Source: Candidatus Saccharimonadales bacterium
GTDB lineage: Bacteria > Patescibacteriota > Saccharimonadia > Saccharimonadales > DATKHC01
Length of the DNA: 64,000 bases
Assembly: GCA_035510465.1 (NCBI GenBank)
Contig: DATKHC010000001.1
Location: 6,799-70,798, forward strand
Reading direction: 5' to 3'
Position 1 is the stretch's first letter; the number at the start of each line of letters is the position of its first letter. Shown piece by piece: positions 5,384-57,319 of this stretch. Position numbers and translations under genes: made by a program. The notes beneath the pieces were generated by a model that worked only from the letters and a program-made list of their open reading frames with translations, was not told the origin of the DNA and did no database searches.

Positions 5384-6901
5384 ATGCAAGCTAACGAAAA
5401 AATTGGCCAACTTATTTACCAAATAAGGCAAGAGCGAGGCTTAACTCAATCCGAGTTCGCCAGCAAACTTGGCACCAGCCAATCAGCCGTTAACCGAATT
5501 GAGCATGGCCGACAAAACTTAAGCCTTGATACTCTAGCTAGAATTAGCGACGTCTTAAATAAACAGCTAATTAGCTTAGAAGGTACCGCTGTTAATCTTC
5601 GTATTGAGGGAGGTCGTGAGCTACACGGAAGCGTGGCACTAAAAACTTCCAAGAACTCTGCTGTGGCACTACTTTGCGCAAGTTTACTAAATCACGGGGT
5701 AACAAGATTCAAGGCCTTTCCAAGAATTGAAGAAGTCTTTAGGATCATCGAAGTACTAGAAAGTATTGGTGTATCTGTTAAATGGCTACCAGGTAACGAT
5801 GTTGAGATCCGACGTCCAGCTAAATTGGATCTTACTCATCTGGACGCAAAAGCCGCCCGTCAAACCCGGAGTGTTTTAATGCTAATTGGGCCTCTCATTC
5901 ATGAGGCGAATAACTTTAAAATTCCTTACGCTGGCGGTTGCAAACTAGGACGAAGAACCGTTGCGCCTCACTTGTATGCCCTGGAGGAATTTGGGGTAAA
6001 TATAGTTGCAACCAGTGGTCACTACAACGTTCAGGTTCACAGAAAAAACCCAGAGCCATTTGTTATGTACCAAACTAGTAATACCGCTACTAATAATGTG
6101 CTGATGGCAGCCGCTTCAACTGCAGCCAAAACCACAGTCCAAGCCGTTAGCGGGGATTACATGGTACAAGATCTTTGTTTCTTCTTACAAAAGTTAGGAG
6201 TTAAGATTGACGGGATAGGCAGCCATTTTCTAGAAATTACTGGGGTACCAAAAATTAAAAAGAATGTTACTTTCGCCCCTTCAGAGGACCCCATTGAGGC
6301 TATGTTTTTCATAGCTGCGGCCGTCGCAACTAATTCTAAAATCACGGTTGAGAGAGTCCCTTATAAATGGATAGGTCTTGAGCTTCTAAAACTGGATAAG
6401 ATGGGCTTAAAGCTCAAACTATCTAAGCCTTACAAGGCAAATAATGGTATTGTCGATTTAACTGATATAACTGTTGGAAAACACAATGGTGAGCTAAAAG
6501 CACTGGAGGATAAAATCGAGCCAAATCTTTATCCCGGCATAAACCCCGATAATCTTCCCTACTTCGTTCCAATCGCTGCTATGTGCAAAGGCAGAACCCA
6601 GATCCAAGACTGGATGTATGAGAACCGGGCAATCTATTTCACTGAAATGACAAAAATCGGCATGCAAGTTGAACTAGCCGATCCGCATAGATTGTTTATT
6701 GACGGTCCAACTCGTTTTTCGAGAGGGGATGTAGTCTGTCCACCCGCCCTAAGACCAGCCAGTTTGCTACTAATAGGTATGTTAGCGGCTAGGGGTGTAT
6801 CAACCCTTAGAAGTGTATACACAATAAACCGTGGATATGAAGATTTGGCCGAAAGACTAAATTCTATCGGTGCTCAAATAACTGTTTTACACGAGCTCTA
6901 G
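5384..6901 (+). CDS. murA: XRE-type HTH domain fused to UDP-N-acetylglucosamine 1-carboxyvinyltransferase
   Basis: Residues 1-65 are an XRE HTH (GLTQSEFASKLGTSQSAVNRIEHG). The rest aligns with MurA: KTSKNSAV (Lys22 region), GGCKLGRR (Cys115 loop), YPGINPD (Asp305 region), and the C-terminal INRGYE. Confidence 0.85.
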   Translation: MQANEKIGQLIYQIRQERGLTQSEFASKLGTSQSAVNRIEHGRQNLSLDTLARISDVLNKQLISLEGTAVNLRIEGGRELHGSVALKTSKNSAVALLCASLLNHGVTRFKAFPRIEEVFRIIEVLESIGVSVKWLPGNDVEIRRPAKLDLTHLDAKAARQTRSVLMLIGPLIHEANNFKIPYAGGCKLGRRTVAPHLYALEEFGVNIVATSGHYNVQVHRKNPEPFVMYQTSNTATNNVLMAAASTAAKTTVQAVSGDYMVQDLCFFLQKLGVKIDGIGSHFLEITGVPKIKKNVTFAPSEDPIEAMFFIAAAVATNSKITVERVPYKWIGLELLKLDKMGLKLKLSKPYKANNGIVDLTDITVGKHNGELKALEDKIEPNLYPGINPDNLPYFVPIAAMCKGRTQIQDWMYENRAIYFTEMTKIGMQVELADPHRLFIDGPTRFSRGDVVCPPALRPASLLLIGMLAARGVSTLRSVYTINRGYEDLAERLNSIGAQITVLHEL

Positions 6902-7702: not shown

Positions 7703-7791
7703 ATGATTTCTGCTTGTCAAAATACATCTTTGGATACACTAGCAATATCTTCAAAACTTGAAAAATTTGTGTCTCAACAAAGAATTTAGTT

Positions 7792-7820
7792 AATCTACTC
7801 CCAACGTGCTTGTGTGTCAA
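7792..7820 (-). promoter_or_regulatory. putative promoter for the islet-1 transcript
   Basis: Minus strand reads TTGACA, 17 nt, TAGATT, immediately downstream of tRNA-His. Confidence 0.35.
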
Positions 7821-7828
7821 TAGGTCCT

Positions 7829-7903
7829 TGGGGTGTCCAAAGGGAATCGAACCCTCGTCGCCGCGACCACAGTGCGGAGCTTTACCACTAAGCTATGGAC
7901 ACC
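7829..7903 (-). tRNA. tRNA-His (anticodon GTG)
   Basis: Encoded G-1 opposite C73, acceptor GTGTCCA/TGGACAC, anticodon loop CTGTGGT, T-arm GAGGG-TTCGATT-CCCTT, encoded CCA. Confidence 0.9.
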
Positions 7904-9284: not shown

Positions 9285-10334
9285 ATGGTTGGTCTAATTA
9301 GCCCTGAGATTAGAGATGTTGCAGTGCCAATTGCCGGAGAACCTAAGGGCAAAAATTTGTTATCAATGCATCAACTTAACGAAGATGATATTTATATATA
9401 TCTGGAAGAGGCACAAGCTGCTTCAAGACTAGTTGATGACCCATCACTAAGAGGTATCAGGCTCTTACCGCATGCTGTTATGAAGGCGGTCATGAGACAA
9501 CCGTCGACACGTACCGGGGGTAGTATGACCACCGCCATGTTCAAGCTTGGAGGCGCTGGAGAACTTATAAGTGGTATGAGCAGTTCATCTGAAGCAAAGG
9601 GTGAGTCTTTGGCAGATTCCTGGATAGCTTTTGCTACCCAAGCCGACATCCTTGGTATACGTACGGCTGAGGATAACGGACCCGCCTTTGCTGCTAGAGT
9701 TATCGCAGAGTCAGCAGCAGCAGGTAAGTTACCCAGAACCATTCCAGTAATCAACCTAGGAGATGGTAGAAACGAACACCCAACGCAGGCACTCGGCGAC
9801 GAATTTACTATCTTCAGAAAGTTTGGGAGATTTGAGGGACTAGTATTGGCAGTCGTCGGTGATCACGAAAGATACCGCGCTCACCATTCTCTAATGATTG
9901 GTGCTGCGATGCTGGGTATGACCGTAGTGGCGGTCGAGTCGAAGGCAGCAAAAGTTCCCCCAGATCTTGTGGCAGCTATGGGAAACAAGCTTAGCCGAAC
10001 TTACGACTTGGACGAGGCTATGCGATATACTGATGCGCTATACGTAGGCCGAAAACCCGACGAGTATGCTGGCCGCAAATGGCAGGAAAAGCGGCGAGAG
10101 CGCCGACTAGACAGAGACTATAGAAAGTGGGTAATCGACAATGACAGGCTTCAGCAGATGAGTCCCAATGCCTTAGTGCTTCATCCTAGACCACGAAGGG
10201 GTGAACTTCACCCTAGTGTTGACTCAGATCCAAGAATGGGTGATGTAATGCAGATGTATAACATGATAGCTATGCGTATGGCTATTATTGCTCTGCACCT
10301 CGGTGAGTCTATCTCAGAGTATGTAATGTGCTAG
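9285..10334 (+). CDS. pyrB: aspartate carbamoyltransferase-like protein
   Basis: Carbamoyl-phosphate motif STRTG, HPTQALGD, and HPRPR near the C-terminus. Confidence 0.7.
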   Translation: MVGLISPEIRDVAVPIAGEPKGKNLLSMHQLNEDDIYIYLEEAQAASRLVDDPSLRGIRLLPHAVMKAVMRQPSTRTGGSMTTAMFKLGGAGELISGMSSSSEAKGESLADSWIAFATQADILGIRTAEDNGPAFAARVIAESAAAGKLPRTIPVINLGDGRNEHPTQALGDEFTIFRKFGRFEGLVLAVVGDHERYRAHHSLMIGAAMLGMTVVAVESKAAKVPPDLVAAMGNKLSRTYDLDEAMRYTDALYVGRKPDEYAGRKWQEKRRERRLDRDYRKWVIDNDRLQQMSPNALVLHPRPRRGELHPSVDSDPRMGDVMQMYNMIAMRMAIIALHLGESISEYVMC

Positions 10335-10416: not shown

Positions 10417-10884
10417 TTAAATATTGCCAGGGTCTATAGGTTGACGAGTGGCGCTGCTCACGTCGTTCCAAAACTTGTCCGTGGAGACATACGATTTGTT
10501 ATCTATAGTCACTCCTCGGCAACCAGTTGTCGAAGCTGTAGCAGTAAGAGATGGATTCGTGAAAGTGAATGTGTATTCAACGCCGTCGTCCATAGGGCAA
10601 TTATAAATACCAGACGGTGTAGATTTTAATGAGTCTATGTCATTTAAAATAGTAAGCGCAGAGGAACCGCTAACTTTCTTTGTAAAATTACTTACGCCTG
10701 GCTGGTTAAGTGTGTTCTCTCTTTCAATTGTTAGGCCAATTCCGGAAGAATTTTGGGATAGACTGCTGCTATTGTGGTAGTGCTTATATATAAGCCCACC
10801 AACTACTCCAAGCAAAACTATCACAAATACAGTTATTAAAACTTCAACAAGCCCAAAGCCTTGGTTATTTATTTTTTTAATCAT
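10417..10884 (-). CDS. type IV pilin-like protein
   Basis: N-terminal prepilin-type motif QGFGLVEVLITVFVIVLLG. Confidence 0.65.
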   Translation of the reverse strand: MIKKINNQGFGLVEVLITVFVIVLLGVVGGLIYKHYHNSSSLSQNSSGIGLTIERENTLNQPGVSNFTKKVSGSSALTILNDIDSLKSTPSGIYNCPMDDGVEYTFTFTNPSLTATASTTGCRGVTIDNKSYVSTDKFWNDVSSATRQPIDPGNI

Positions 10885-33295: not shown

Positions 33296-33339
33296 AGCTA
33301 GAGTATCGCAGAGATAACATTTAGGTAAAAGCTTAATAT

Positions 33340-33368
33340 AAAAAAAATGACCTCAATACCTAAGGTCA
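33340..33368 (-). terminator. rho-independent terminator after non-coding element copy 1
   Basis: Minus strand reads UGACCU-UAGGUAUUG-AGGUCA followed by U8. Confidence 0.65.
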
Positions 33369-33381
33369 AAATGTTTATGCT

Positions 33382-33669
33382 TGGAGGTCGGGTCTGACTA
33401 TGGGTCACCCAATTAATGGCTGAGATAACACGTTGGTACTGTCATAGCTGCTGAGTACTCCCAACACGCTTTGGCTACATATAAAGTCTGATGTGTTCGG
33501 GGCTCTTAAGGTAGAGTTATTGGTTTTTAACCGAATCTACCTTAATTAAAAGCTCTTAATAGCTAAAAGGGATGGTTCGCTGGTTCCTTACGATACTACC
33601 CTTAGTTAACGCCTACCTAGTTTGAAAGTGCAAAAGTACAACTACTATAGTAGGAGACTTTTTGAGTTT
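33382..33669 (-). ncRNA. conserved structured non-coding element, copy 1 (unclassified; candidate RNA)
   Basis: About 290 nt directly after the PIN stop codon and homologous to 35384-35679. Shows compensatory changes and a GUAA tetraloop hairpin. Ends in CCTCCA and is followed by a terminator. Confidence 0.5.
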
Positions 33670-34068
33670 TCAGTTTAAGGCAAGTGTCGTAACACAATCC
33701 CTGACACTTATGATTTTGATATTTTTATGCTCTTTAAGTTCAAGTAAAAGCTTATCACCTGTTACTAAGTAGTCAGCATTACCTTTAACACTTGTTTCTA
33801 ATATTCTGTTATCGGGTTCGTCAGTTATAACATGGAGGAAAGGCTGAAAGTATACTACATCCGCTTCACTTAGCAGCTGCTGTAGTAGTTTTATATTAGT
33901 AGGCTGAGCTTTAAATCTATCCTCAAGTATACGGGTTGTTTCAGCAATGATATATGACGATAAAACCAATCCATGCAACCCTCCTAGCGTGCTAAGCAAG
34001 AGCTGCTCTGGCAAGCCATCAAATAGCAAAGCTGAAATGATAACGTTAGTGTCAAGAACAAGACGCAT
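33670..34068 (-). CDS. PIN-domain toxin (type II TA)
   Basis: MRLVLDTNVIISAL N-terminus, later acidic residues, and a 1-nt overlap with the upstream RHH gene. Confidence 0.8.
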   Translation of the reverse strand: MRLVLDTNVIISALLFDGLPEQLLLSTLGGLHGLVLSSYIIAETTRILEDRFKAQPTNIKLLQQLLSEADVVYFQPFLHVITDEPDNRILETSVKGNADYLVTGDKLLLELKEHKNIKIISVRDCVTTLALN

Positions 34069-34304
34069 TACTTAGCTCGGTGGGCGCGGACAACTTCTAC
34101 TACTTCATCTTCACTGAGTTGCTTGCCCTTATATTGGCTACGAACTTTGCTGGTTAAGCTTTCCCATTGCTCTAGGGTAGCTAATTGCTTTCTTACCGCT
34201 AGACGAACAAAATCACTACGGCTACTTCCTTGGCGCTTAGTTTGAGCGTCAATACGCTTTACGAGCTGTTTGGGCATTGATATGTTGAAAGTTTGTGAGT
34301 TCAT
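34068..34304 (-). CDS. ribbon-helix-helix (CopG-like) antitoxin
   Basis: FNISMPKQLVKRIDAQTKRQGSSRSDFVRLAV is an RHH pattern. Confidence 0.75.
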   Translation of the reverse strand: MNSQTFNISMPKQLVKRIDAQTKRQGSSRSDFVRLAVRKQLATLEQWESLTSKVRSQYKGKQLSEDEVVEVVRAHRAK

Positions 34305-34310
34305 ACAAAC

Positions 34311-34339
34311 ATTGTATGATACTATGCTTCGGTTGTCAA
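34311..34339 (-). promoter_or_regulatory. consensus-like promoter of RHH-PIN module 1
   Basis: Minus strand reads TTGACA, 17 nt, TACAAT, ending 6 nt before the ATG. Confidence 0.6.
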
Positions 34340-34394
34340 GTAGGAAATGTAAAAGTGCAGCACCTATGTATGTGCATTTTGCAGTTTCGGGATT

Positions 34395-35204
34395 CTAATT
34401 ATAGCTAACGCTACTCAAGATTTGATTTGCAGTTTGTACTTCGCTATTGCTAAACCATGCCTGGGCTTCAGCAATACTGCTGAAGTTGAGATAGTTCCCA
34501 CCTGCACTGTTATTTAATGAACCAACATTAAGGCACTGTAAGTTGCTTGTGCTAATAGTAGATTTAGTATTTTCAAAGAAGCCAGCAGCAGACTCATCAT
34601 CATTTCCTGTAGTGTTTGTATGTGAACCAACAGTAATGCCGTTTTGCTGAACAACTGCATTTGAAGTTAGATATAAGTTTTCTGAAATATTACTACTGCT
34701 ACTGCCTTGGTAAGACGAAACTGCCTTAACTATCTTAAAGCCCGGTGTTGAAGTTGGTGAAGTTACTGATAGAACATTATCGGTATAAGTTCCTGCTGGT
34801 GGGGCAGCTAATTGTGTGCAATAAGGTTGATATTCAACCGTTACATTACCTGATGGACTGGTTATATTGGCTTCTGTAGTTGTAGGCTCTGGAGCAATAG
34901 TCCCATCAGGGTCTACGCCAACTGATTTAGTGGCCAACGACCAGTTTGATGGATATTTAAGGCACAAGCCACCATAACTAGAACAGAAGGATTTCCAACC
35001 CGTATAGGGGTTAGTTACAGTGGTTGTTTTCGTTGAGCTGTATACTGGTTTTGCGGTCGAAACTGTAGCGGCAGAAGCGCTAGTAGTCTTGTGGTGGTTC
35101 TTATAGACTAACCAACCTACCGTACCAATTAAAGCCAATATAACTATAGCCAGTATTAGTTCGACAGCACTGAATCCTGAATCATTATTGTTTAGCTTTT
35201 TCAT
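34395..35204 (-). CDS. type IV pilin-like protein (large, Ser/Thr-rich)
   Basis: Prepilin motif SGFSAVELILAIVILALIG. Confidence 0.6.
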   Translation of the reverse strand: MKKLNNNDSGFSAVELILAIVILALIGTVGWLVYKNHHKTTSASAATVSTAKPVYSSTKTTTVTNPYTGWKSFCSSYGGLCLKYPSNWSLATKSVGVDPDGTIAPEPTTTEANITSPSGNVTVEYQPYCTQLAAPPAGTYTDNVLSVTSPTSTPGFKIVKAVSSYQGSSSSNISENLYLTSNAVVQQNGITVGSHTNTTGNDDESAAGFFENTKSTISTSNLQCLNVGSLNNSAGGNYLNFSSIAEAQAWFSNSEVQTANQILSSVSYN

Positions 35205-35259
35205 TAAGACTTATCCTTTTATTAGCTTCAGTTTAGCATTATAGATTAGGTGCATAGTT

Positions 35260-35383
35260 GGGTGTAACCAGTCGTAATTTTACTGGTTGAATTTAACTGT
35301 TTAAAATCAAAAGTGTTTACACCCCATGGATAACAGATATAGAAGCGGGATAATAACAGTAAAAATTGATGATTCTGTATTTG
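35260..35383 (-). repeat. direct repeat A' (copy of the sequence that follows tRNA-Lys)
   Basis: Minus strand CAAATACAGAATCATCAATTTTT...ATCTGTTATCCATGGGGTGTAAAC...GGTTACACCCAA aligns with 37425-37549. It contains a hairpin with a compensatory G-C to U-A change. Confidence 0.6.
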
Positions 35384-35679
35384 TGGAGGTCGAGACAGAC
35401 ACCAATGTACAACCTTTAATAGCTGAAGTACTGCGCTGGCGTAGTGTCATAGGTACTGTGTACTCCCAACAAGCTTTAACTACATACAAAGTCTGATTTG
35501 TTCGGGCTTTTAAGGTGGAAGCATTGGTTTCTCATCGAGCCTACCTTAATAACACCTCTTAATAGTTAAAAGGGATAGTTCGCTGGTTCCTTACGGTACT
35601 ACCCCTAGATAACTGCCTACCGACTTTGAAAGTGCAAAAGTACAACTACTATAGTAAGAGACTTTTTGCGTTTTCAGTG
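35384..35679 (-). ncRNA. conserved structured non-coding element, copy 2 (unclassified; candidate RNA)
   Basis: Homologous to 33382-33669 and located directly after the second PIN gene. It shares a 32-nt block (TACTATAGTAGTTGTACTTTTGCACTTTCAAA) and an 18-nt block (CGTAAGGAACCAGCGAAC), both identical. Confidence 0.5.
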
Positions 35680-36075
35680 CTAGCCTAAGATTTTATTGAA
35701 AGCTGTCGGAGTAATAATTGCTGTGCTTTTATACTTTTTAAGCACTGCCAAATCTTCATCAAGCGTAACAATATAGTCTGCTTTGCCATACAATGCTGTA
35801 GCTAAAATCATATCGTCATTAGAATCACGGGATATTTTCTCGATACTTTCTAGTTTCGCTACTTCAGATACTCTTACCAATAGATTAGTTCGTGATTTAG
35901 CAGCTTGTTTTGTTAAGCCGAACTTAGATGATAAAACTGTCTCTACTTCAGCTAGGATAGGAACTGAGATGACTATTACGATATTTCTAGAACTAACAGC
36001 TTGCTTCAGTTTTAATATCTGGTCTCTGCGTGATAGCAGCGTTACTAACACACTTGTGTCGTAGACAACACGCAT
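35680..36075 (-). CDS. PIN-domain toxin (type II TA)
   Basis: MRVVYDTSVLV N-terminus and PIN acidic residues. Only distantly similar to the other PIN. Confidence 0.8.
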   Translation of the reverse strand: MRVVYDTSVLVTLLSRRDQILKLKQAVSSRNIVIVISVPILAEVETVLSSKFGLTKQAAKSRTNLLVRVSEVAKLESIEKISRDSNDDMILATALYGKADYIVTLDEDLAVLKKYKSTAIITPTAFNKILG

Positions 36076-36078
36076 AAA

Positions 36079-36345
36079 TCAACGCTTTCTAGTTGAACTT
36101 CGTACTTCTTTAACTGCCCTAAGGTAGTCTTTGTCGCTTGCATAGCCAGCTTTCTTAGCACTTGCACGAACTTCGTCAGCACCAATTGCAAGTTCTCCCC
36201 ATATATCGTTATCTTGAGCTTTTAATCGTCTCACAATAGTTTGACGAATAAACTCGCTTCTAGAGGCATAATCCACACTAGCTGCATTATCAATTTTTTT
36301 TACTAATTCTTTGGGTAGTGATATATTTATAATCTGTGTAGTCAT
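36079..36345 (-). CDS. ribbon-helix-helix (CopG-like) antitoxin
   Basis: INISLPKELVKKIDNAASVDYASRSEFIRQTI is an RHH pattern. Confidence 0.75.
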   Translation of the reverse strand: MTTQIINISLPKELVKKIDNAASVDYASRSEFIRQTIVRRLKAQDNDIWGELAIGADEVRASAKKAGYASDKDYLRAVKEVRSSTRKR

Positions 36346-36373
36346 ATAAATCCTATATTAATTACATATAATT

Positions 36374-36402
36374 ATTATATGCCTATAGTCTACTGGTGTC
36401 AA
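36374..36402 (-). promoter_or_regulatory. consensus promoter of RHH-PIN module 2
   Basis: Minus strand reads TTGACA, 17 nt, TATAAT. Confidence 0.6.
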
Positions 36403-36495
36403 TACTATGTATTGGTCCATAACATACTAAACCTGCAAATGTAAAATCGTATATTACTACTTATTAAGACTCTAACTAAGTAACTCTGGCGGGAG

Positions 36496-37389
36496 CTACT
36501 CTTGATGAAGTATCTTTGCGAATACCGATGGACCATCTTCTTTAAGTGCAGTAGCTATCTGTACAGCAGACGCTCCTGCTGATATATAGTCTTTAACATC
36601 TGTAGCTGTGCTAATACCGCCTGCTCCTATAATATAAATGTCTTTTGGCAGTAAAGAACGCAATTGCTTAACAACACCCAAGCTAATTGGTTTAAGTGCT
36701 CTACCGGCTAGCCCTACGAGCTTATCGTCATAGAACTTATTATCTTTGGCCCCACTAGTAATCGCGGCATTAGGATAAGTATTTGTGGCTGTTACGATTT
36801 GGACAATACCGGAATCAATTATTGCTTTACTCACTTCTTGCAGAATATCTGGAGGGAGGGGCGAAATTTTAACACTTATTTTTATCTTAGGTGATTGTTT
36901 GCTAATAAAAGACAAGGCGTCCTTAACTAGCGAAGCATGATACGAAATTATACGTTTCTGATGGACTCCATCCCAAACATTCGGGCAACCAAAGTTAAGT
37001 TCCACTACATCAGCACCTGATTCTTCAGCAAACCCAACCAACTCCACAAACTCAGAGTTAGAGAAACCAATAACGTTTGCAACTAATGGTTTACCCTCAC
37101 TATGTGCGATTTTTACCATCTTGGGTAAAGCCTCTTTAAAATATGGGATTCCGCCATTGGGCAGTCCGTAAGAATTGAGCGAGAAGAAATGCTCTTTATG
37201 AAGCCAGTAGTTCTTCCCTGGATTTTTATTTCGCGGCTGAACTGAGATTGAGCCAACAACTACGGCGCCCGCCGCTGAGCTTACTAAAGCATTAATATCC
37301 TTAAGGTTCTTACTGTTTATATATGCGCCGTTCATGAGAGCATTGCCAAACTTAATGCCTGCAATGTTTACGGAAGATGATAGTTTCAT
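36496..37389 (-). CDS. pyrD: dihydroorotate dehydrogenase, class 1-like
   Basis: TIM-barrel DHOD pattern with the active-site ELNFGCPNV. Confidence 0.75.
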   Translation of the reverse strand: MKLSSSVNIAGIKFGNALMNGAYINSKNLKDINALVSSAAGAVVVGSISVQPRNKNPGKNYWLHKEHFFSLNSYGLPNGGIPYFKEALPKMVKIAHSEGKPLVANVIGFSNSEFVELVGFAEESGADVVELNFGCPNVWDGVHQKRIISYHASLVKDALSFISKQSPKIKISVKISPLPPDILQEVSKAIIDSGIVQIVTATNTYPNAAITSGAKDNKFYDDKLVGLAGRALKPISLGVVKQLRSLLPKDIYIIGAGGISTATDVKDYISAGASAVQIATALKEDGPSVFAKILHQE

Positions 37390-37424
37390 AACTTAATGAT
37401 AACAAAGCCCCTAAAACTAACTAT

Positions 37425-37549
37425 TGGGGGTAACCTCCTACGATTTTTACGTTAATTTTTAAACCTTAGGAAAAGTAAAAAGTTACCCCCACTGTGTAAC
37501 AGATGTAAAAAGATGGATTGTTTAGCAAAAATTGATAGTTCTGTATTCG
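37425..37549 (-). repeat. direct repeat A (immediately downstream of tRNA-Lys)
   Basis: Minus strand CGAATACAGAACTATCAATTTTT...ATCTGTTACACAGTGGGGGTAAC...GTTACCCCCAA. The 10-bp stem is TGGGGGTAAC/GTTACCCCCA. Confidence 0.6.
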
Positions 37550-37626
37550 TGGAGGGCCCAGTGGGACTCGAACCCACGACACCCTGCTTAAAAGGCAGGT
37601 GCTCTAACCAGCTGAGCTATGGGCCC
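37550..37626 (-). tRNA. tRNA-Lys (anticodon TTT)
   Basis: Acceptor GGGCCCA/TGGGCCC, anticodon arm CCTGC-CTTTTAA-GCAGG, T-arm GTGGG-TTCGAGT-CCCAC, CCA. Confidence 0.9.
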
Positions 37627-37720
37627 AAATTTTTAGAAATTAGCTAAGACTAGCCCAGATGTCACCAATAAGATTATCTATGCTTTAATTTAAATGTCAA
37701 ACAGGAGTAGTAAAGACCCA

Positions 37721-54917: not shown

Positions 54918-54994
54918 GGCGGCGTAGCTCAGTTGGTTAGAGCGCGGGACTCATAAGCCCGAGGTCATAGGTTCAATTCCTATCGCCGCTACCA
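54918..54994 (+). tRNA. tRNA-Met, elongator type (anticodon CAT)
   Basis: Acceptor GGCGGCG/CGCCGCT, anticodon loop CTCATAA, T-arm ATAGG-TTCAATT-CCTAT, CCA. The body resembles elongator Met, but Met versus Ile2 cannot be proven from sequence alone. Confidence 0.8.
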
Positions 54995-55032
54995 TATTTG
55001 ACTATTAGTAAAGCTTATGCTATACTAATAAC

Positions 55033-55626
55033 ATGTCAGAAAAACCAAAATCAAATCAAAACACCAGCCCAGAGAAAATTGCTGAGTTATTACACGACCC
55101 TGCTTTTAAAACCATGCTTGAGGGTCACACTGGAGAATATATAAGCTCTGGGTTAATGACTTACTACGGTAAAAGCATTAAACACAATAATAAAAGATTT
55201 GAAGATGAGCCTGATTTCTTAAAAGTGTTTCTGGCAAAGCACAATGATGAAGAGCAACTAGACAAGATAAAAGAGTCGCATGATGAACATCACGAAGTGG
55301 CCAGTGAATCACTGCGAGTTGAAGGTCCATTATTAGTAACCAGACATTTTCAAGAGCCCAATGATGCTGGAGTAGCTAAGACTTGGTACGGTCTTGAAAG
55401 ATATAACCCAACTGATGGTAATCCATTACCTTTATCACACTTTTTTGTCTGTGAGGTCGGTGATGACGGAAGCGTTGAATGCGGAATAGACCAGCCAGCT
55501 GATTTTGTTCCAGACGCACAATTACGCGAGTTTGCTGAAATGCTTGATCGACACTTTGATCAACAAGTTCAAGCAGGCTTAGTTATTGATGTTCCTGTGA
55601 AGTTCAGTATTAAAGGTATAGTGTAG
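55033..55626 (+). CDS. hypothetical protein (first cassette after tRNA-Met)
   Basis: 197-aa acidic ORF with TTGACT, 17 nt, TATACT upstream. No family recognised. Confidence 0.45.
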   Translation: MSEKPKSNQNTSPEKIAELLHDPAFKTMLEGHTGEYISSGLMTYYGKSIKHNNKRFEDEPDFLKVFLAKHNDEEQLDKIKESHDEHHEVASESLRVEGPLLVTRHFQEPNDAGVAKTWYGLERYNPTDGNPLPLSHFFVCEVGDDGSVECGIDQPADFVPDAQLREFAEMLDRHFDQQVQAGLVIDVPVKFSIKGIV

Positions 55627-55707
55627 GTCACATCTAGTTATAAGCTGCTCAACAGGTTCAATACCTCGCGATTAGGCTTTCGAACAAGTCTTACTCCTGG
55701 TTTGATT

Positions 55708-55777
55708 CACTATTTCCCACATCGCAATCAATTCAAGTTTGAGTTGGTTCCATTTCGTCCAACTCGTCTCTACCATA
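55708..55777 (+). repeat. 70-bp cassette-boundary direct repeat R1
   Basis: CACTATTTCCCACATCGCAATCA...TTGGTTCCATTTCGTCC...CTCTACCATA aligns with R2 and R3. Confidence 0.65.
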
Positions 55778-55785
55778 AAATCCTC

Positions 55786-55814
55786 TTGACATAAGTGGTC
55801 AGTGTGATTACAAT
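55786..55814 (+). promoter_or_regulatory. promoter of mazEF-like module
   Basis: TTGACA, 17 nt, TACAAT, directly after R1. Confidence 0.6.
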
Positions 55815-55824
55815 AGTAATTACT

Positions 55825-56061
55825 ATGCAGTCAACTATAATTCAAATCGGTAATTCTAAAGGTGTACGTCTACCCAAGGATGTTCTAACCCTAAGTGGTA
55901 TTAAAAAAGACATTGATATAAAGGTCAAACGAGGTGAAATAAAAATAGTCCCTATAAAGGAAAGTAAAAATATTGATGACTTCGCTATTGCTTCTGAGGA
56001 GTCGTTTGCTAAAGACTGGCTACGACCTGAGGAGGAAGAGGCATGGAAAGCTTATCAATAG
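55825..56061 (+). CDS. AbrB/MazE-family antitoxin
   Basis: MQSTIIQIGNSKGVRLPKDVL is a SpoVT/AbrB pattern. The track start 55795 lies inside the promoter, so ATG 55825 is preferred. Confidence 0.75.
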   Translation: MQSTIIQIGNSKGVRLPKDVLTLSGIKKDIDIKVKRGEIKIVPIKESKNIDDFAIASEESFAKDWLRPEEEEAWKAYQ

Positions 56062-56378
56062 GCCAAGTAGTCTTAGCTACCTTCCCTTTTTCAGACTTAA
56101 CGGCAACAAAACTTAGGCCGTGTTTGGTTATTGGCCTAGCTGAGTTTAATGATGTTTTATTGTGCCAAATAACAAGTAAGAACTATGGCAGTAGAAAAGC
56201 AATAATGTTAGCTATGAGCGATTTTGATCAAGGAGAACTCGTACGTGATAGTTTTGTTCGCCCAAACAAAATAGCTACATTAGATAAAAGCAAAATAAAA
56301 CGAACCTTAGGGACAATTAGCAGCAACAAGCTGGATGAGGTTAAAGAAAGGCTGAAAAGTATTCTTGAGATAAGTTAA
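56043..56378 (+). CDS. MazF/PemK-family toxin
   Basis: GQVVLATFPFSDLTATKLRPCLVI pattern. Overlaps the antitoxin gene. Confidence 0.8.
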   Translation: MESLSIGQVVLATFPFSDLTATKLRPCLVIGLAEFNDVLLCQITSKNYGSRKAIMLAMSDFDQGELVRDSFVRPNKIATLDKSKIKRTLGTISSNKLDEVKERLKSILEIS

Positions 56379-56419
56379 AAAGCTTCTGATTTTAAACTTT
56401 GTTCTTCTCTAATTTGTTT

Positions 56420-56489
56420 CACTATCTGCCACATTGCTATCAGTTCTCTCTTTATTTGATTCCAATTCGTTCCTACCACGCCTACCATA
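56420..56489 (+). repeat. 70-bp cassette-boundary direct repeat R2
   Basis: CACTATCTGCCACATTGCTATCAG...TTGATTCCAATTCGTTCCTACCACGCCTACCATA. Confidence 0.65.
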
Positions 56490-56518
56490 TTGACATGTTA
56501 AGTAATGTTTGATACCAT
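56490..56518 (+). promoter_or_regulatory. promoter of HTH-PIN module
   Basis: TTGACA, 17 nt, TACCAT, directly after R2. Confidence 0.55.
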
Positions 56519-56524
56519 ATAGTC

Positions 56525-56791
56525 ATGTCTAATAACATTATTCCTGATAAAGTATATACTCCTGAGCAAGTCGCAACTATGTTGCAGCTCTCTAAAAATA
56601 CTGTCTACGAATTGATCAGCAGAGGTGAACTTGTCGCTAAACGTTTCGGTAGAGTTTATCGAGTGCCTGCTAGCTCACTCAATTTTATCTTTACTGGTCT
56701 AGACGCCGACTTATACAATGCCGAGCAGATTGATTTGGCGTCCATAGATAAAGTTCACAAAGAACTGGCAGCAGTACGTAAAGGTTCGTAA
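56525..56791 (+). CDS. excisionase-family (MerR-like) HTH protein, probable antitoxin
   Basis: YTPEQVATMLQLSKNTVYELISRGEL is an HTH_17-type pattern. The next gene, a PIN toxin, starts 1 nt after the stop. Confidence 0.65.
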   Translation: MSNNIIPDKVYTPEQVATMLQLSKNTVYELISRGELVAKRFGRVYRVPASSLNFIFTGLDADLYNAEQIDLASIDKVHKELAAVRKGS

Positions 56792-56792
56792 T

Positions 56793-57230
56793 ATGACCTT
56801 CATTAGACCAATAAGGGTCTTTGTTGACACAGATGTAATAATATCTTCCCTTATTTCTAAGTCTGGTGCCGCTTTTGCTCTTATATCCCATACAGAGCAG
56901 GTAAAGCTCTATATATCAAACTATTCTGTATTAGAGTTTAATAAAGTTGTTGACAGACTCCACCTTCAACAAGAGGTGTTGCACAATGTCATTAAAAACC
57001 AATTAACCTCTGTTAAGATTGACCAGACATACAAAAAAGTGCAGATACGGTTTGCTGATTACGTTCGAGACCCCGATGATGCCCATGTCGCTGCTGGTGC
57101 CATGGAAGCTAAGGCTTCATTTTTAGTATCATATAATGTTCGGCATTTTAATGCTGAGAAACTAAGACAAGATTTTCAAATTATCCTTTTAACACCTGGT
57201 TTATTTTTGCAATACCTACGTAGTTTATAG
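56793..57230 (+). CDS. PIN-domain toxin
   Basis: VFVDTDVIISSL N-terminus and later DPDDAHV. Confidence 0.75.
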   Translation: MTFIRPIRVFVDTDVIISSLISKSGAAFALISHTEQVKLYISNYSVLEFNKVVDRLHLQQEVLHNVIKNQLTSVKIDQTYKKVQIRFADYVRDPDDAHVAAGAMEAKASFLVSYNVRHFNAEKLRQDFQIILLTPGLFLQYLRSL

Positions 57231-57249
57231 CCTCTCCCCTAACAGTCTT

Positions 57250-57319
57250 AACTATTTGCCACATCGTTATCAGTTCTCGTTTAATTTGGTTCCAATTCGT
57301 TCCTATCAGACCTACCACG
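57250..57319 (+). repeat. 70-bp cassette-boundary direct repeat R3
   Basis: AACTATTTGCCACATCGTTATCAG...TTGGTTCCAATTCGTTCCTATCAGACCTACCACG. The 3' part resembles the tRNA-Met 3' end. Confidence 0.65.

Follow-up and report, generated by a model that had tools for sequence, protein, structure and literature searches.

A tRNA-Lys-anchored array of small toxin–antitoxin cassettes in a Saccharimonadales genome: a case for serial site-specific insertion

Tandems at the 3' ends of tRNA genes have been described for ICESt1-type ICEs (integrative and conjugative elements) as well as for integrative and mobilizable elements (IMEs) together with cis-mobilizable elements (CIMEs) (PMC5704250), and tycheposons and other tRNA-proximal islands of Prochlorococcus arise by repeated integration next to tRNAs (bioRxiv 10.1101/2020.12.28.424599). 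In Dehalococcoides, genomic islands are reported to be inserted at ssrA, a tmRNA gene that is present as a single copy (PMC3146451). Here we describe an array downstream of a tRNA-Lys gene in a 64,000-nt stretch (the window; DATKHC010000001.1, positions 6,799-70,798) of a Candidatus Saccharimonadales metagenome-assembled genome (MAG; GCA_035510465.1). Two small cassettes, each with one cargo gene and a toxin–antitoxin pair, stand there in tandem, joined at copies of the last six bases of the tRNA gene. The array represents a known mode, tRNA-targeted tandem accretion, in a novel form: its scale is that of an integron array, its host belongs to the candidate phyla radiation (CPR) and its recombinase is missing. 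Our literature search gave no account of this type of array in either Saccharibacteria or Patescibacteria.

The array occupies positions 37700-33290 and is described here in its own, minus-strand orientation. tRNA genes in the window were called with ARAGORN and Rfam. The tRNA-Lys(UUU) gene (37550-37626), preceded by a promoter-like site (37673-37700; TTGACA-16-GATAAT, 11/12), encodes its CCA and ends in GGGCCCTCCA; its last six bases, CCTCCA (37555-37550), form the core at which each junction of the locus lies. Unit 2 (37549-35384, 2166 nt) follows the tRNA directly, and unit 1 (35383-33382, 2002 nt) follows unit 2. Unit 2 opens with a 5' element, A (37421-37549), that begins directly 3' of the core and has the motifs ACAGA...ATCTGTTA and an inverted repeat (GGGGGTAAC/GTTACCCCC). 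Next come a cargo gene for a 297-aa dihydroorotate-dehydrogenase-family protein (36496-37389; DHO_dh, PF01180, E 8.9e-43), an operon promoter that matches the consensus in full (36374-36402; TTGACA-17-TATAAT, 12/12), an RHH antitoxin-like gene (36079-36345, 88 aa; RHH_1), a PIN_3 toxin-like gene (35680-36075, 131 aa; PIN_3/PIN) and a conserved non-coding 3' element of ~300 nt (nc2; 35384-35684, core 35389-35384). Unit 1 has a repeat of A (A'; 35255-35383), a gene for a 269-aa pilin-like protein with a prepilin N-terminus (34395-35204; the N_methyl motif scores slightly below the Pfam cut-off), a short element, H1' (34345-34391), a promoter (34311-34339; TTGACA-17-TACAAT, 11/12), an RHH gene (34068-34304, 78 aa; RHH_1), a PIN_3 gene (33670-34068, 132 aa; PIN_3/PIN) and the distal non-coding copy (nc1; 33382-33680, core 33387-33382). 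Immediately 3' of nc1 is F (33296-33381), the displaced native trailer of tRNA-Lys, with a terminator-like hairpin and T-run (33368-33348).

The core is intact at all three kinds of junction in the window (tRNA|A, nc|A' and nc|F). nc2 (35684-35384) and nc1 (33680-33382) are 88% identical, and both terminate in CGACCTCCA, with CGA|CCTCCA at the very end. A and A' (37549-37421 and 35383-35255) are 69% identical, with an alignment score of 39 as compared with -12 +/- 5.5 (maximum 8) for shuffled sequences. These alignments, together with ARAGORN, Rfam and Pfam, bear out a first-pass annotation of the window, which had read the same order of features from tRNA-Lys to terminator and had called A and A' direct repeats starting after the core. 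In terms of site-specific recombination, the tRNA gene is the anchor of the array and its attB- or attI-like left partner, nc2 plus A' is an internal attP-like junction, and nc1 plus F is an attR-like junction.

Related loci show that the place downstream of this tRNA gene is variably occupied. A conserved 18-mer of nc and a 24-mer pattern retrieved a contig of a Saccharimonadales genome (L004) and nine metagenome contigs, and more loci were obtained via homologues of the upstream membrane protein and of the unit 1 PIN protein (PIN1). Upstream synteny is constant among the relatives (DnaK, DnaJ, RimK-type ligases, a ~165-aa membrane protein, tRNA-Lys), while downstream of the tRNA there are 0, 1, 2, 3 or more units, up to roughly 15 or more, so the relatives do not simply carry the same two units in fixed synteny. 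Locus L024 is an empty site: tRNA-CCTCCA is followed directly by F (CCTCCA-N-AACAGAT...hairpin...TATCTGTTAAAAAGTTCTAG) and then by ordinary genes, with no A and no nc. L015 has exactly one unit (A, a kinase-like gene, RHH-PIN, nc) between tRNA and F, L004 has at least three units, L018 and L047 have long arrays with F after the last nc, and the array in L048 extends over ~13 kb with 19 sense-strand copies of CCTCCA, mostly intergenic. An empty site in L024 as against occupied ones in L015 and the window is the pattern of site-specific insertion, and the locus has the features of a tRNA-targeting element, which is inserted where the tRNA ends, is flanked by direct repeats of that 3' end, and has an empty site in relatives. 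F in the window has the same position and hairpin layout as the post-tRNA sequence of L024 (but is more diverged than other copies of F). A is not a universal trailer of tRNA-Lys, as the trailers directly after the tRNA in L024 and L034 are not A, nor did we find a motif shared by all tRNA trailers of the window.

The breakpoints between loci fall on the core. In BLAST comparisons homology starts at 37555 or 35389 (the first core base) and stops at 33382 (the last core base), and the partner on the far side of the junction differs among matching loci (nc, X or tRNA, where X is one of the end classes below). The sense strands of six arrays contain 46 copies of CCTCCA, almost always between genes, compared with 4.6 copies in shuffled sequences and five on the antisense strand. 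We catalogued 67 distinct occurrences; the bases in front of the hexamer tend towards GG(C/A), giving a consensus of GGN|CCTCCA that resembles the tRNA end. There are three classes of cassette 3' end: nc (~300 nt, with truncated forms that retain the last ~135 nt), X (~30 nt; GGTTGCAATAGCTTCACAGTAGGC|CCTCCA, dozens of copies in eight loci) and Y (~100 nt; ...ATATAACTTAATTCCTTGGTGGG|CCTCCA). X reproduces the tRNA-Lys 3' end over 14-17 nt (a score reached by 1-25 of 500 shuffles), and, on reading the junction sequences, the last ~30 nt of nc resemble X, with ATAGCTT in common. Three Y-type elements of L048 (10555-10613, 12509-12567 and 16990-17048) have two CCTCCA copies ~50 nt apart, the first within a small hairpin (CTCC-ACCTAA-GGAG); an empty mini-cassette is one possible reading of the doubled core, a structural part of the site another. 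Among cassette 5' ends are A and a TTATG-type class, besides others. By eye, A and F share an ACAGA...TATCTGTTA layout, which is only a hint that cassette 5' ends may descend from tRNA trailers.

The two units of the window are not copies of each other. Their PIN proteins are 30% identical, their RHH proteins 44% over the aligned N-terminal 41 residues, and their cargo genes are unrelated, although the nc copies are 88% identical; simple tandem duplication of a unit is ruled out for this reason, and the non-coding ends are evidently far better conserved than the genes between them. In both units the RHH and PIN genes overlap or abut in an operon with a consensus promoter, and the pairs are predicted type II toxin–antitoxin systems (VapBC-like). 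The cargo genes, in contrast, have no strong promoter-like site in the window.

Neither is the unit indivisible. The stretch from H1' to the end of nc1 (H1'-RHH-PIN1-nc1, 34391-33382) recurs with 86% identity in L015 behind the kinase-like gene and also in L011, L047 and L048 behind other genes (the PIN proteins of these four arrays are 80-90% identical to that of unit 1), whereas L017 has a homologous pilin-like cassette without toxin–antitoxin genes. A unit is hence a composite of a cargo part and a toxin–antitoxin/nc module; by these alignments the two assort independently. The 'identical architecture' claimed by the first-pass annotation holds for the order of genes and elements, but the architecture is modular, with a toxin–antitoxin/nc module that is separable from the cargo (L015, L017). 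H1' marks the start of the separately exchanged module: homology to L015 and L018 begins at 34391. It is a third copy of H1, an imperfect palindrome at the 5' end of nc (GAAAACGCAAAAAGT...ACTTTTGCACTTTC; 35626-35677 and 33622-33673), and lies between the pilin-like gene and the RHH promoter, exactly at the onset of the L015 homology. H1 reads as promoter-like on both strands (TTGAAA-18-TATAGT and CTGAAA-18-TATAGT).

Cassette genes are much more similar between genomes than the genes around them. Between genomes in which DnaJ is 67-78% and the anchor membrane protein 28-46% identical, homologues of RHH and PIN1 have 80-92% identity, and those of a RelB/RelE pair 95% and 88%. Judged by these identities, cassettes have evidently been exchanged horizontally, across genomes that differ by ~30% in DnaJ.

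Integron arrays, above all chromosomal superintegrons with their many toxin–antitoxin cassettes, are the closest architecture to this array. In both, small, mostly co-oriented cassettes stand on one fixed platform, each with a conserved 3' recombination element and a short core as the crossover point; the 3' elements form classes that vary greatly in length and have only the core in common, and toxin–antitoxin cassettes have their own promoters. The tRNA-Lys array differs in that no intI is adjacent, the platform is a tRNA 3' end rather than attI, the host is a CPR bacterium, and the core is CCTCCA rather than GTTRRRY, with no supported attC-type folded palindrome (R''/L''-L'/R' boxes). Tandems with CIMEs resemble it in the insertion at a tRNA 3' end with the gene preserved, in successive insertions at one att site with attP-like internal junctions, and in the structural part of the CIME definition (attL and attR are retained and integration and transfer genes are absent). 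Unlike those decayed multi-kb islands, cassettes here contain one or two genes (0.5-2 kb), number roughly 15 or more in an array, share a core of only 6 bp for nc-type ends with several end classes on one core, and have no cognate autonomous element or integrase that we could see. Tycheposons are likewise found in small streamlined genomes, with newer elements pushing older ones outward, partial tRNA copies between units and degenerate remnants; they are, however, several kb long and have a tyrosine recombinase and often replication modules, whereas the units here consist of cargo and toxin–antitoxin genes only and the partial tRNA copy is 6-17 nt. The Dehalococcoides islands resemble the array in their reported integration at a tmRNA gene of a small-genome bacterium and differ in the target, which is a tRNA here. 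They stand in tandem between direct repeats of the 3' end of ssrA, have their own recombinases and are much larger.

On the explanation that we favour, and hold to be reasonably probable, a recombinase encoded elsewhere inserted integrase-less mini-cassettes serially and site-specifically at the tRNA-Lys 3' terminus. A circular cassette would have an attP-like site made of a 3' arm (nc here; X or Y elsewhere), the 6-bp core CCTCCA and A. The recombinase, most likely a tyrosine recombinase, would swap strands between this core and the six identical bases at which the tRNA gene ends, leaving the tRNA intact, tRNA|A as attL and nc|F as attR. A next insertion at the tRNA-proximal junction would leave an internal nc|A' and displace the older cassette and the tRNA terminator outward. 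Toxin–antitoxin pairs with their own consensus promoters would stabilise the cassettes, homologous recombination between conserved nc, H1 and A copies would reshuffle cargo and toxin–antitoxin modules, and cargo genes may be expressed by read-through from the tRNA promoter. Serial insertion at the tRNA 3' end had been proposed in the first-pass annotation; the empty site, the one-unit locus, the longer arrays and the breakpoints on the core agree with it, with the amendment that the unit can be split. The preference for a cassette array over a classical genomic island likewise stands, given the small units and the lack of an integrase.

Several observations weigh against serial insertion by a remote recombinase. 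One is the recombinase itself: in agreement with the first-pass annotation, a partial screen of the window (a sequence-motif scan of all open reading frames (ORFs) >=110 aa, and Pfam on 18 ORFs) gave no candidate. There is none in the gene calls within ~10 kb around the arrays of L047, L048, L054, L057, L058 and L059, none in the Pfam lists for the flanks of seven loci apart from an rve_3 and a DDE_3 insertion sequence (IS), and none in the ~7 kb of contig beyond the window start (the other end gave only a 2-kb contig). No cassette examined encodes an integrase. Nothing similar was found in INPHARED or PLSDB, and three pattern scans of IMG/VR gave chance hits only; a phage or plasmid origin was rejected on these results, and no autonomous ICE or IME relative sharing the att site was seen in the loci compared, IMG/VR, or the phage and plasmid collections. 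Neither a circular form nor an excision junction was seen: the lone terminal overlap, in contig L022, was considered as a circular cassette contig and turned out to be a repeat artefact. Furthermore, six contigs of the L048 species with 99.8-99.99% identity bear the same array, which indicates that turnover is not fast. In L058 and L059, F is right after the tRNA and X-bounded cassettes are beyond F, a layout that insertion solely at the tRNA core cannot account for. L047 has decayed cores, CCACTA and CCACCA (9580-9590 and 10658-10663), with the flanking nc, A and F still recognisable; these cassettes are probably old and immobilised. Lastly, nc, 300 nt in length and conserved at 77-88% from copy to copy, would be a long arm for an attP site, and X ends, far shorter, apparently fulfil the same function, which leaves most of nc without a role in this model.

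The IS with the rve_3 transposase (321 aa) has its own inverted ends and a duplicated target and lies between the membrane-protein gene and tRNA-Lys, with two tandem copies in L058 (29-2043) and one in L059 (4425-5390). We considered this gene, beside tRNA-Lys, as the recombinase, and rejected it as part of an ordinary IS upstream of the tRNA. The DDE_3 gene, presumably also of an IS, is in L057.

A second tRNA-anchored array of mini-cassettes is found in the window itself, at 54918-57317 on the plus strand, after a tRNA-Met(CAT) gene (54918-54994). Its core, CTACCA, is repeated at 55770-55775, 56482-56487 and 57312-57317, each time after a ~85-nt repeat, of which the final 18 nt are a copy of the tRNA-Met 3' end. 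A TTGACA/TTGACT hexamer directly follows the tRNA-Met end and the CTACCA at 55770 and 56482, but not that at 57312. The cassettes contain an unknown gene, a MazF-type pair and an HTH/PIN_3 pair, and no integrase is present in this array. The same logic with another tRNA and another core argues for tRNA-anchored cassette insertion as a general mode of gene gain in this genome. A further step would be that Saccharimonadales have a dedicated, integron-like capture platform, in which tRNA 3' ends (Lys with CCTCCA, Met with CTACCA) receive 0.5-2-kb cassettes through a remote recombinase, nc, X and Y act as attC does, and the tRNA promoter may drive expression; we offer this tentatively, as possible but with the odds against it. 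A bolder version, with nc as an RNA cofactor of the recombination, has the missing covariation (below) and the cassettes that lack nc against it.

It is also conceivable, though unlikely in our judgement, that the units are the last remnants of larger tRNA-targeting prophages, ICEs or IMEs integrated in tandem, which lost their integrases and nearly all their other genes but kept the toxin–antitoxin genes, as these resist deletion; the units would then be fossils unable to move, or strict-sense CIMEs. CIME-containing tandems are documented to arise when elements accrete in tandem and then decay (PMC5704250), and the decayed cores, the truncated nc copies, the identical arrays of near-identical strains and the lack of a nearby integrase are all as decay would have it. 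Decay does not readily give cassettes that are uniformly small (one or two genes) and mostly co-oriented with the tRNA; by a tally of the strand columns in our gene tables, all six genes of the window array and all 21 called genes of L048 (plus strand) are co-oriented, but only about half of those in L054. Nor do the arrays have any Pfam-annotated phage or conjugation genes. The short end classes X, Y, nc and A recur intact dozens of times across genomes, and near-identical cassettes are found in diverged genomes behind different neighbours, which again speaks for insertion of mini-cassettes rather than for remnants.

Could the arrays have grown without a dedicated recombinase? nc, A and X might be conserved for a function of their own, possibly regulatory, with cassettes gained by transformation and homologous recombination. 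The nc copies are mosaics of variant blocks, and the H1'-RHH-PIN-nc module stands behind different cargo with an H1-like sequence at its upstream edge, both as expected from such recombination; Saccharibacteria are reportedly naturally transformable. We nevertheless regard this as improbable, as it leaves unexplained why the terminal CCTCCA of the tRNA is at the end of every junction class, why the tRNA|A and nc|F boundaries are exactly at this hexamer, and why X copies the tRNA 3' end and the tRNA-Met array uses the terminal bases of its own tRNA.

Another reading takes nc as an RNA gene ending in CCA, either structured, tRNA-like or associated with the toxin–antitoxin pair (a PIN substrate or decoy, or a guide RNA), and duplicated with its partner genes. 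It draws on the high conservation of nc relative to the neighbouring genes, on the promoter-like site in the H1 palindrome, on the discriminator base and CCA that nc shares with tRNA-Lys, and on the position of nc, which adjoins the PIN stop codon in six of ~16 copies, including two PIN lineages that are 30% identical. There is also one hairpin in nc with compensatory changes (TTAAGGTAGA/TCTACCTTAA, three pairs changed on both sides). This hairpin is the only one, however: substitutions in the other putative stems are mostly uncompensated, the folding z-scores of the single sequences (-0.97 and +0.02) are no better than those of shuffles, and the RNAalifold consensus (-15.6 kcal/mol over 306 columns, covariation term +0.76) has no supporting covariation, so nc was rejected as a structured RNA. 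Rfam scans at the gathering cut-off and at E<=10 matched only tRNA and ARAGORN found no tmRNA, and nc was rejected as a known RNA. nc was also considered as a diverged tRNA-Lys, perhaps with an intron, as MAFFT aligned an anticodon-like CCCTTTTA, but local alignment against shuffles gave no significant similarity past CCTCCA. The first-pass claim that each unit regenerates a tRNA-like end is therefore right for these six bases and does not extend to the rest of nc. Since nc also comes after many genes other than PIN and gives way to X or Y in many cassettes, we consider an RNA gene very improbable.

A gave a comparable result. Its inverted repeat is conserved (84% of cells paired in 15 copies of A), but covariation measures do not exceed those of shuffles, and the 'compensatory change' that had been noted in its stem concerns a single pair, which is G-C in six, U-A in one and mismatched in eight of the 15 copies; a covarying helix is thus not supported. 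Reverse-strand ORFs of 56-79 aa cross the nc/A junction, yet copies differ by 1- and 2-nt indels, so nc and A are not coding. In view of these results (no Rfam match, no supported fold, no tRNA likeness beyond CCTCCA, no coding), and with the reservation on arm length made above, we read nc and A as putative DNA-level arms of an attP-like site, possibly with a promoter or operator function in H1. A 10-mer of the conserved 3' half of nc (AAGCGTGTTGGGAGTAC) is also present in the trailer of tRNA-His (~7785-7829, minus strand; GTTGGGAGTA), which may be chance (~0.1 matches expected in the window).

Least credible of all is movement by a DDE transposase with a strong target preference, the units being non-autonomous transposons with imperfect terminal inverted repeats and CCTCCA a 6-bp target-site duplication: one core at the empty and two at the occupied site would be expected from target duplication too, and there is weak inverted symmetry around the core (e.g. 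TCGGAGTCGG|CCTCCA|CGAACTCAGA), but this symmetry is inconsistent between copies, the tRNA copy in X ends is up to 17 nt long, which exceeds the duplication, and the sole DDE genes seen belong to ordinary IS copies, that with rve_3 having its own ends and lying upstream of the tRNA.

CPR bacteria (Patescibacteria) have tiny genomes and an epibiotic lifestyle, and their gene gain and loss are poorly understood. At this locus a tRNA gene offers its 3' end as a fixed docking site, which accumulates one- and two-gene cassettes, with toxin–antitoxin pairs, pilin-like and surface proteins, nucleotide-metabolism enzymes and hydrolases among their contents. If the cassettes are mobilised in trans, this would be integron-like gene capture with a different core, platform and recombinase, and would provide a natural, defined insertion site for the engineering of Saccharibacteria. 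Should they be fossils instead, the arrays remain a record of serial invasions, with toxin–antitoxin modules dominating the survivors. In either case, GGN|CCTCCA junctions with X, Y, nc or A offer an easy means to search metagenomes for further arrays of this type.

Short-read assemblies need care in this respect. Five Logan contigs (L019-L023; SRR8676596 and SRR8676597) of the same strain as the window break inside nc and A, so that each unit forms its own ~2-kb contig. The short junction motifs account for these breaks, and strain-level variation, which we had considered for the same contigs, was rejected because they merely break at nc. In short-read MAGs such arrays will be systematically fragmented or lost. 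Apart from the two arrays, the window encodes (5384-6901, plus strand) a 505-aa protein in which an N-terminal Cro/C1-type helix-turn-helix (HTH) is fused to an EPSP_synthase-family domain, an unusual combination.

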